A stretch of 64,000 bases of DNA, from IMG/VR virus record IMGVR_UViG_2718218305_000006. One strand, written 5' to 3'. How positions within the stretch are numbered: position 1 is the stretch's first letter; every line of letters begins with the position of its first letter. Position numbers: made by a program. Below, piece by piece: positions 1 to 3,000 of this stretch. This stretch comes from a virus. Taxonomy: Duplodnaviria > Heunggongvirae > Uroviricota > Caudoviricetes.

Positions 1-3000
1 ATGAAGATCGTAAAGGCTGAAGTTTTTGTTACCTGTCCGGGGCGTAATTTCGTCACATTAAAAATCACCACTGAGGACGGTATTACACCATAAATTTTTG
101 GCTTGCTGATTTCTGCACGCATCGATAAGACGGATGAATTCCTCCCGCGAAAGAGGATCCGGAATGGTTCTTGATTCCTTTAATGGCGAGATCCCCTTAA
201 ACGGGTTATCTGCCAGGTAACCGTTATCAACACCAAACTGGAACACGGCGTTAAGATTTGTCATGTAATTATTTACAGTTACAGCCGATCTCCCTGGTTG
301 TGTAACAATATAGTTACTTTTGGGGATCTGGTATCCAGTCAGTAGCTCTTTACGAACCTCCAGTAATTTTTCTTTATTAATCGATGAGGCAAGATTTTTT
401 TCACCGATTATGCTCAGGATATTTTTGATGACGGCACGGTATGTGTTGAGTGATGTTTTTGCGACTTCAGTTTCTTTCAGTGCCAGAAATTTTTCAGCCA
501 GTTCTTTTATGGTTAAATCTTGTCGGGCCTCACCAAATTTTTCCAGATTGCGTGAGGAGGGAAACTGTTTTGCATAGTCGAAAACACCAGTTTTTATTGC
601 GTAACAAACAGAGGCGCGTAGCTCACCTGCAACGCGCCTGTTTTTTGCTGTGTCAGGAACCCCAGGTTTTCCCTGACTCTTACGCCTTTATAAACAAACC
701 AGATACGTAATTTCCCTCCATGGTTTTCCACGCCTGTCGGATATTTCATTTCAACTTCTCTCATTAGTTAGTGTGGCTTTTAGTCAAGTAAGATGACGTC
801 TTGGTCTTGCTGATGCCTGGCGCTCAATCCAGCGATCAATTTCTTCCAGGTTGTAAAAGCATGGACTGTTATCCCATGGCATACCGTCATGAGCGACATG
901 CTTATATTCCCTTCCTTCCATAAACGATTTTTCCCGGGCCTTTTTTAACGTACCTTTTTTTATTCCTTTCAGCGCAATTAACTGCTCTTCGGATACCCAT
1001 TTGCCGGGAGAGACAATCATGATTACTTCGCTCATCGATTTCTTTATCTCTTACATCAGACGAGCGCCGGTTGCAGAATACCAGTCACAACCGGCGACAG
1101 TTGAACATTAAGAATCAGCCTGACTCGGGATCAGTTTTTGCCAGATAGCTGAAACGTATTTTGCCTGGTAACGGGCGTCATCAAGTGCATTATGGCGCTC
1201 ACCTTCGAATGGAATAGCCGTTCTGGCATCGAAGTCTATGGCTTTCCCCAGCTCAACGATTGTGCGTACATCGCGATCGTTGTAGTAACGCCACGGGCAG
1301 GGGCTCCCCTGCCGTTCGTATGAACGGCGCAAAATCGTGTTGTCGAAGTTGGCTCCATTTCCCCAGACATGAACAAAAAATTCACCGGAGTTTTCGTCGA
1401 TAAATTCCCGCAATTGTAACAGTGCATCATCTAACGGGATTTCATCGGTCATAATGGCAGATTGCGCTTCGCGTGATTGTTTAAGCCACCATTTCATGGT
1501 GTCCCGATCAATGACTCCGCCAGCAGTATCCAGATCGATAGTCTTACTAAATTCCGGTCCCATATCTCCGGTTTGCGGATCGAAAAATATTGCACCTATT
1601 GAGATAATCGGGGCATCGGGATTTTTTCCCATGGTTTCAAGATCGATCATCAGATGAATCCCCGCTCTGCTGGTGGATGTGAGATTATGATGACCGTTCG
1701 CCTTAATTAAGGGATCTGACGCCTCGCCAGTTTCACTATCGCTGGCATGATGCTGATTGCCGCCAGTGTTCTCCTTGTGCTGATGTGCAGTACCTTCCAT
1801 TTCCTCCGGATCATTTTCCTGAACTTCAGGCTGATTCTCTCCATCGAATATTTCCTGGTATGTTGCGTCACCCATCACCGCACCACAATCAGGGCAGTTG
1901 CCGCCACCGCTCTGACCGCAGGCGGTGCAGATCTTTTCCGGTTCCTGTTGCACTACTGGTTCAGGTTGTTTCGTTTCTGGCTCGTTTTGTTGCGTATTTG
2001 GGCTGTTTTGTTCCGCTTTCTGGTCGTTCTGTTCCGTTTCTTGCTGGTTCTGGTTCACAGAATCGCGGGTCTGGATCCCCTTAACCCATTTCGGATCATT
2101 CGGGTCGCTAATCCCTTCAACAAATTCACCACGTGATACTGCAAGCAGTTCCTCGGCGTCAGGCTGGCTGATATTGGCTGCCTGCATAATTTTCTTTACT
2201 TCGTCAGCGGTAACTTTTACCGGTTCTGGTTGTTCAGAATTTTGTGCGGTATTTGCATTTTGCGGTAAGCCTGTGTATGTGCCATTTTTTCGGGCAAAAT
2301 ATTCTTCTTTTGTGATTTCAGTAGCCCCGGCAGCCAGCGCCTTATCCAGACCAGAAAGTTTGTTTGCGCGACCGTATTTTTCGCCATCCTTGTCGGTGAA
2401 GAGGAAGTAGAACGGCCCCTCACGTTCTACAGATGGTTCGACTTCCACTTTGCATTCGGTTTTTTCGTTGTCTGGAATTGCCGTTTCCACTGCATCAGTT
2501 TCTGGTACTGGCGACGAGAGAGTATCAGTTGCGCTCTGATTTGTTCCTTCATCTTCAAACACGCCCTTTGTAGTCAGGTATTCAGTAATGTATTTGTTCA
2601 GTGCCACAGGGTCTTTGTGAATGTCGATCGGACGTTCACGGACAAGGCCAAAAATAGTCTGGCGGTCGTAGCGAAGGGCATCAGGCTGTTTGCGCATTGA
2701 TGCCGAGATACGCTTCCAGTCTTCGCGGCCGTTGTCGATAACTTCATTTTTTGCCCAGCGATGGATGCTGCCGTCAATGTTTCCGGCATCCACATCACCA
2801 GGCCAGAGAGCGTAGGCCAGTTCGTCATCCAGTGTTTTCCATGTCTGCTTGTATTCGCGATGAATGGCAGCAATGACCGGGTTGATTTTTCCTGTTGAAT
2901 TTTCAGTGTGCTGTTGATTGGCTCTGGCGCGGGCGAGATCAACAACAGACGTGTATTTTCCGGCTTCCTTGCGTTCACCTTCGCGACGTTTTTTCCAGAT

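Follow-up and report, generated by a model that had tools for sequence, protein, structure and literature searches.

The window analysed here, a stretch of 64,000 nucleotides from an E. coli prophage region, begins in a scar at which the start of the host gene rspA runs directly into the 5' part of a prophage integrase gene. This scar most probably (probability about 0.9) goes back to a single illegitimate, i.e., non-homologous, deletion of ~2.96 kb at the integrase end of a lambdoid prophage that resides in ydfJ, the Qin site, and corresponds to Sp12 of E. coli O157:H7 Sakai. The deletion would have extended from rspA codon 29 to codon 222 of the prophage integrase and would have taken the remainder of rspA, the whole of rspB, the ydfJ 5' stub together with the attL core and the P' arm, and the catalytic domain of Int; a slip of 1 nt in a G5 run, either before or after the deletion, would have added a frameshift to the remaining integrase sequence. 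That this happened in one step is the parsimonious reading: set against intact references the two flanks meet to the base, with no filler, IS or att sequence in between, which makes a single deletion the simplest account. The scar has no mechanism of action of its own; it is genetic debris that became fixed in a clone. It corresponds to what is annotated as the integrase pseudogene and as the boundary of Sp12 and is as such already known and ordinary; what is added here to existing annotation and publications are the breakpoints at base level, the content of the deleted block and the distribution among lineages. The features are compiled in Table 1.

Table 1. Features at the deletion scar and at the boundary to the neighbouring tandem prophage (positions in the window).
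Feature	Position	Strand	Description	Basis
rspA 5' remnant	1-86	+	nt 1-86 of 1215; the ynfA spacer with the promoter side lies just left of the window	
Residual ORF made by the fusion, 30 codons	1-93	+	29 RspA residues and Pro, TAA at 91-93	ORF list
Deletion junction	85-86		AC assignable to either parent; no filler DNA, no IS	three-way alignments, register comparison
Integrase pseudogene	85-749	-	nt 1-666 of the 1281-nt Qin/ydfJ-site tyrosine integrase; arm-binding and core-binding (SAM-like) regions only	
Frameshift	660-663	-	G5 run of the intact gene (~codon 30) reduced to G4; window reads CCCC	alignments
Excisionase (DUF1233 type), intact, same prophage	784-1035	-	WP_000005552.1	PF06806, E=1.6e-31
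Exonuclease, 823 aa, next gene of the early-left operon	1108-3579	-	annotated exonuclease	PF16473, E=3.6e-66
att core GAAATCCATAATTCA, sole copy in the window	50243-50257	-	attP-like, phage arms on both sides (flanks ~50030-50300); boundary between Sp12-type and tandem Sp11-type prophage	
Paralogous integrase, intact, 424 aa, neighbouring tandem prophage	50301-51575	-	Arm-DNA-bind_2 and Phage_integrase	ORF; Pfam

RspA is a starvation-sensing protein and an enolase-superfamily dehydratase. On the host side of the scar, the first 86 bases of the window align with the start of K-12 rspA with zero mismatches and diverge from position 87, and they are likewise identical to rspA of strain OkiPb01715 (86/86, E=4e-40). 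The stub amounts to 28 full codons plus 2 nt, so that a full-length RspA coding sequence (~404 aa) is no longer present, and phage sequence follows from 85-86 onward. An interpretation made earlier from the DNA letters, here called the sequence-only reading, had described an rspA-like frame of about 28 codons that gives way to integrase DNA, and the alignments bear this out. In EDL933 and Sakai the region to the left of the window start consists of ynfA followed by a 205-bp ynfA-rspA spacer, and no complete rspA was found when it was sought there in these two genomes. Thus, neither of the two observations that would have spoken against the sequence-only reading, a complete rspA and attL further left or first bases unlike rspA, was made. 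The PGAP annotation of EDL933 lists the rspA stub as an 87-bp partial pseudogene ('hypothetical protein, missing C-terminus').

On the phage side, the minus strand of the integrase remnant was compared with the intact integrase gene of OkiPb01715, an unrelated strain that carries the closest intact integrase found, and 662 of 666 positions are identical (99.4%) with one gap. Together with the near-identity to K-12 intQ this identifies the remnant as an orthologue of intQ and of the intact ydfJ-site integrases. As internal comparator the intact paralogue of the neighbouring tandem prophage was used, of which window 50910-52020 is 89.8% identical to window 85-1195, i.e., to the remnant and its flank. 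Tyrosine recombinases of family PF00589 are characterised by a C-terminal catalytic domain with the residues R-K-H-R-H/W-Y. In the intact paralogue Pfam assigns PF00589 to aa 201-392, whereas the remnant breaks off at aa 222, directly ahead of the stretch 'TGVRPGE', and PF00589 was not detected by Pfam in the remnant. Three-frame translation revealed one switch of frame at ~codon 30 and no other stops, and the shifted frame crosses the junction and terminates at window 55-57. If the frame is repaired in the translation, Arm-DNA-bind_2 (E=2e-24) and SAM-like N-terminal domains are scored; the frameshift breaks the actual ORF, however, and therefore no arm-binding or SAM-like protein is encoded as the sequence stands. 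It had been proposed beforehand that the integrase lacks its catalytic half and is frameshifted, and both parts agree with these results, the frameshift being due to a single loss of 1 nt. The remnant is a pseudogene and no functional tyrosine recombinase. In Sakai it carries the annotation pseudogene ECs_5736, and in EDL933 it is listed as 'Arm DNA-binding domain-containing protein, frameshifted, missing C-terminus'. The accession of the neighbouring excisionase is common to the window prophage and to the intact prophages of OkiPb01715 and S30.

At the junction, rspA reads G after the dinucleotide AC while the integrase strand reads A. A shared sequence of about 3 bp (ACA) had been assigned to the breakpoint before; as rspA continues with G, this has to be corrected to the 2 bp AC. 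Independent support for an overlap of 2 bp comes from genomes that do not have the junction, since these match just position 1-60 (rspA half) or just position 59-120 (integrase half) of a 120-bp probe spanning it, taken from window 27-146. Microhomology of at least 2 bp is expected by chance at ~16% of random junctions, so the overlap (P ~0.16) carries no statistical weight and the molecular route cannot be named from it; replication slippage, end joining and topoisomerase or gyrase error are candidates. Around both breakpoints 19 of 60 positions match in register, and no IS, IS end, target duplication, att-like sequence or filler was found at the junction. The junction therefore combines unrelated flanks and a microhomology of few bp with the lack of any mobile element, recombinase site or att core, which is the pattern of the illegitimate deletion that the sequence-only reading had put forward.

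IS elements are abundant in this region, K-12 intQ is cut at IS2E, and copies of ISEc8 and IS629 are found further along the window prophage. It could on these grounds be supposed that the deletion was IS-mediated or arose in several steps, in that an IS inserted in int or rspA, caused an adjacent deletion and was lost later, or in that two deletions met. We consider this improbable, because adjacent deletions formed by IS usually leave the IS at the junction, where here neither an IS nor an IS end nor a target duplication is present, because the flanks abut exactly with respect to the intact references, and because more events are needed than for one deletion.

What was removed by the deletion can be read from loci in which the block is preserved. 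In OkiPb01715 and S30 the intact order, with genes arranged and oriented as in the O157 locus, is ynfA, rspA (1215 bp), rspB (1020 bp), a 187-bp spacer containing att, int (426 aa, on the opposite strand), xis and exonuclease. The window matches the OkiPb01715 locus at 2953-3038 and then from 6001 onward, with a single uninterrupted gap of 2,964 bp in between that comprises rspA nt 87-1215, rspB, the 5' stub of ydfJ that contains the att core, and int nt 667-1281. This block covers everything that had been suggested to be lost, namely the rest of rspA, host sequence, attL and the 3' half of int; the loss of 'any downstream host gene', worded in general terms before, is real and can be specified as rspB and the ydfJ 5' stub. 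The empty-site strain AR_0149 has the order rspA-rspB-ydfJ-ydfI with ydfJ at full length, and homology with the lysogen stops ~96 nt into ydfJ, which indicates the 5' part of ydfJ as the integration site of these prophages and identifies the small K-12 ORF 'ynfP' as the 5' stub of ydfJ.

Comparison with the empty-site strain and with the ends of K-12 Qin places the att core TGAATTTATGGATTTC at position 5333-5348 of the OkiPb01715 locus; it is repeated at both ends of K-12 Qin. As the core sits inside the deleted block, attL is gone. Near the left end of the window the core is absent, its sole copy within the window being the one at the boundary to the tandem prophage, and an attL/attR direct repeat with the core GAAATCCATAA... 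was accordingly not found at the left end. With the core missing from this end and attL contained in the deleted block, the prophage is a degraded and not an intact member of the Qin-type family. A longer core of 21 bp, which would have to be common to both K-12 Qin ends and the window, was looked for and rejected, as K-12 Qin and the window each contained a single copy, the true repeat being ~15 bp.

Abnormal excision is the process by which specialised transducing phages form, and such events occur at the int/att end of a prophage, where the junction is situated. An aberrant site-specific recombination, in which Int acted on a secondary att-like site in rspA, is nevertheless very improbable. 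The phage breakpoint falls within the coding part of int, with 615 nt left to the 3' end of the gene and ~650 nt to the att core, a position at which Int does not cut, and the rspA side shares only AC with the phage side and has no match to the att core. Similarity of the breakpoint neighbourhoods to the att core or to arm sites was searched for and none was found.

The K-12 prophage Qin occupies the same ydfJ site in the same orientation, with intQ beside ynfP-rspB-rspA-ynfA, and it shares with the window prophage the gene order dicB, ydfC, relBE, hokD and DUF968 (ydfU-like). Over the shared part, intQ of K-12 and the O157 remnant are nearly identical, and both are pseudogenes, but the lesions affect opposite ends of the gene. 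K-12 keeps rspA, rspB, attL and the catalytic 3' half of intQ and has lost the 5' (N-terminal) end at IS2E, while O157 keeps the 5' half of int and has lost the 3' half, attL and rspAB. The two integrase lesions are independent. The statement that Qin adjoins rspAB with a truncated integrase in K-12 was thus correct, and 'Qin-site prophage with a different deletion' is an accurate description of the window prophage. It occupies the interval from ynfA-rspA(B) to ydfJ, its integrase end pointing toward rspB; the EDL933 and Sakai loci read ynfA, rspA', int', xis, exo, an order that also holds for the intact loci and K-12. The intact Qin-site prophages of OkiPb01715, S30 and O55:H7 CB9615 have the same ynfA-rspA neighbours and the same int-xis-exonuclease module; unlike the window prophage, they retain an integrase of 426-431 aa, the att core and rspAB.

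The distribution of the scar was analysed by searching 5,426 complete E. coli genomes with the 120-bp probe across the junction. A match was obtained in 294/5,426 genomes, each with one chromosomal copy of 100% identity, and all serotype-labelled genomes among 60 listed of the 294 matches are O157. A segment from the rspA 3' part and rspB is present in 5,081 genomes compared with 5,381 that have the rspA 5' or integrase pieces, and the difference of 300 is close to 294. O55:H7 CB9615 retains rspA, rspB and an intact integrase of 431 aa at the same site. Among the genomes examined, the deletion is thus confined to the O157 clone, and we infer from the genome counts and the EDL933 and Sakai loci that RspA and RspB were lost in the O157:H7 lineage. 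The 120-bp junction constitutes a clean marker, as it is found in all sampled O157 genomes and not in O55:H7 CB9615, and the deletion accounts for the missing rspAB in O157:H7. A literature search on loss of rspA/rspB in O157 brought up only work on expression in EPEC. O55:H7 CB9615 was also considered as direct progenitor and rejected: its locus is intact but its integrase is a different allele, ~95% identical to the remnant as estimated by eye from the alignment. The same genome counts bear on the view that the junction is an artefact of assembly or of a chimeric window, for which nothing can be put forward except that the window happens to start exactly at the rspA start codon. This view has next to no probability, given that 294 independently assembled complete genomes carry the identical junction, once each and in the chromosome, and that the junction is annotated in the Sakai and EDL933 reference genomes.

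The deletion scar can be assigned to Sp12 by comparison with the annotated genomes. Many E. coli O157:H7 chromosomes, that of EDL933 among them, match the first 1,100 bases of the window at 100% identity. In Sakai, the annotated 'prophage Sp12, lambda-like phage' (2204089-2255027) has its end at the junction, with the integrase pseudogene ECs_5736 ('intR'), followed by ynfA, and Sp12 is arranged there in tandem with Sp11 at ydfJ. The locus is the same as in the window, and Sakai and EDL933 both match it at 100% identity across positions 1-4596; the window strain differs from both in the early region past ~4.6 kb, in the position of IS629, and in the integrase and exonuclease of the Sp11-type prophage, which are intact in the window. 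Disruption of Int in Sp3, Sp11 and Sp12 was reported by Asadulghani et al. (2009), who predicted these prophages to be non-excisable, and for Sp12 neither excision nor replication nor packaging was detected, these data being from strain Sakai and not from the window strain (PMC2669165). For the ydfJ locus, a tandem pair of lambda-like prophages was described, in which deletions and segment replacement are frequent (PMC9997748). A description of the breakpoints at base level was not found in the literature searched.

As both attL and the integrase catalytic domain are missing, the prophage should be unable to excise by its own means, which agrees with the Sp12 data of Asadulghani et al. (2009; PMC2669165). 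The absence of these two elements provides a reason at base resolution for the non-excision of Sp12-type prophages in O157:H7. We infer that the prophage is locked into the chromosome and that homologous recombination with other lambdoid phages is its only route of change. Much of the prophage to the right of the identical left end differs from Sakai Sp12, and an identical left end with a differing remainder is consistent with locking plus recombination. The value of these results is mainly one of bookkeeping, and no open biological question is raised by them. It might be speculated that the deletion was selected in the O157:H7 founder, be it that loss of RspAB altered starvation/RpoS signalling or sugar-acid catabolism, be it that locking stabilised the nleG-type cargo, or be it that the rspA promoter, running antisense across int'-xis-exo, silenced the early-left operon; even taken jointly, these proposals are unlikely.

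Within the remainder of the Sp12-type prophage, a segment of 634 bp (window 4597-5230) is absent from Sakai and EDL933, and from 5938 to ~16.9 kb (16930) the window gave no match of at least 95% identity and at least 600 bp in the Sakai loci used for comparison. Strain 9000 and UK 'Z' bovine O157:H7 strains match window 4000-12000 at 100% identity, with annotated genes for the Paa adhesin and a fimbrial protein under the match. The interval 4597-16930 represents a segment replacement via recombination in the locked prophage. ARAGORN predicts two prophage tRNAs in window 16168-16400, one with anticodon CAT (Ile in the Sakai annotation) and a tRNA-Arg (TCT); the equivalent part of Sakai Sp12 carries three tRNAs (ileZ, argN, argO). 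An IS629 (IS1203) of 1,310 bp at window 20626-21935 is 100% identical to the Sakai copy but inserted elsewhere in the prophage; the Sakai copy lies at the right end of Sp12. A complete ISEc8 (IS66 family; tnpA, tnpB, transposase) is found at window 46563-49004, flanked by IS256-family fragments, just after nleG-type effector genes or pseudogenes (~44081-46017), and Sakai Sp12 is arranged alike.

At the boundary between the two tandem prophages, the arms of the att site were compared with K-12 Qin. The int-proximal side is 92% identical to the intQ side of K-12 and the side of the phage right end is 80% identical to the ydfJ-side end of Qin, and over 347 bp the site as a whole matches the Sakai Sp11/Sp12 boundary at 96% identity. 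The second, Sp11-type, prophage encodes within window 50301-54377 the intact integrase and an exonuclease ORF of 814 aa, where Sakai has a fused exonuclease/integrase pseudogene. No full-length match above 97% to window 43500-52500 was found among the RefSeq complete E. coli genomes. In strain 9000 and related genomes a match of 99.2% ends at window 50840, within the integrase gene, so that either the integrase may be a mosaic or the prophage a recombinant. In strain Z1626, ~470 kb separate the junction from the best match to window 4000-12000, and the two are on opposite strands. In EDL933 (NZ_CP008957.1, 2280717-2302000) the prophage tail genes are followed by nleA, nleH1-2, nleF and an ompW remnant and not by a tandem ydfJ prophage, an arrangement that fits a large inversion between lambdoid prophages.
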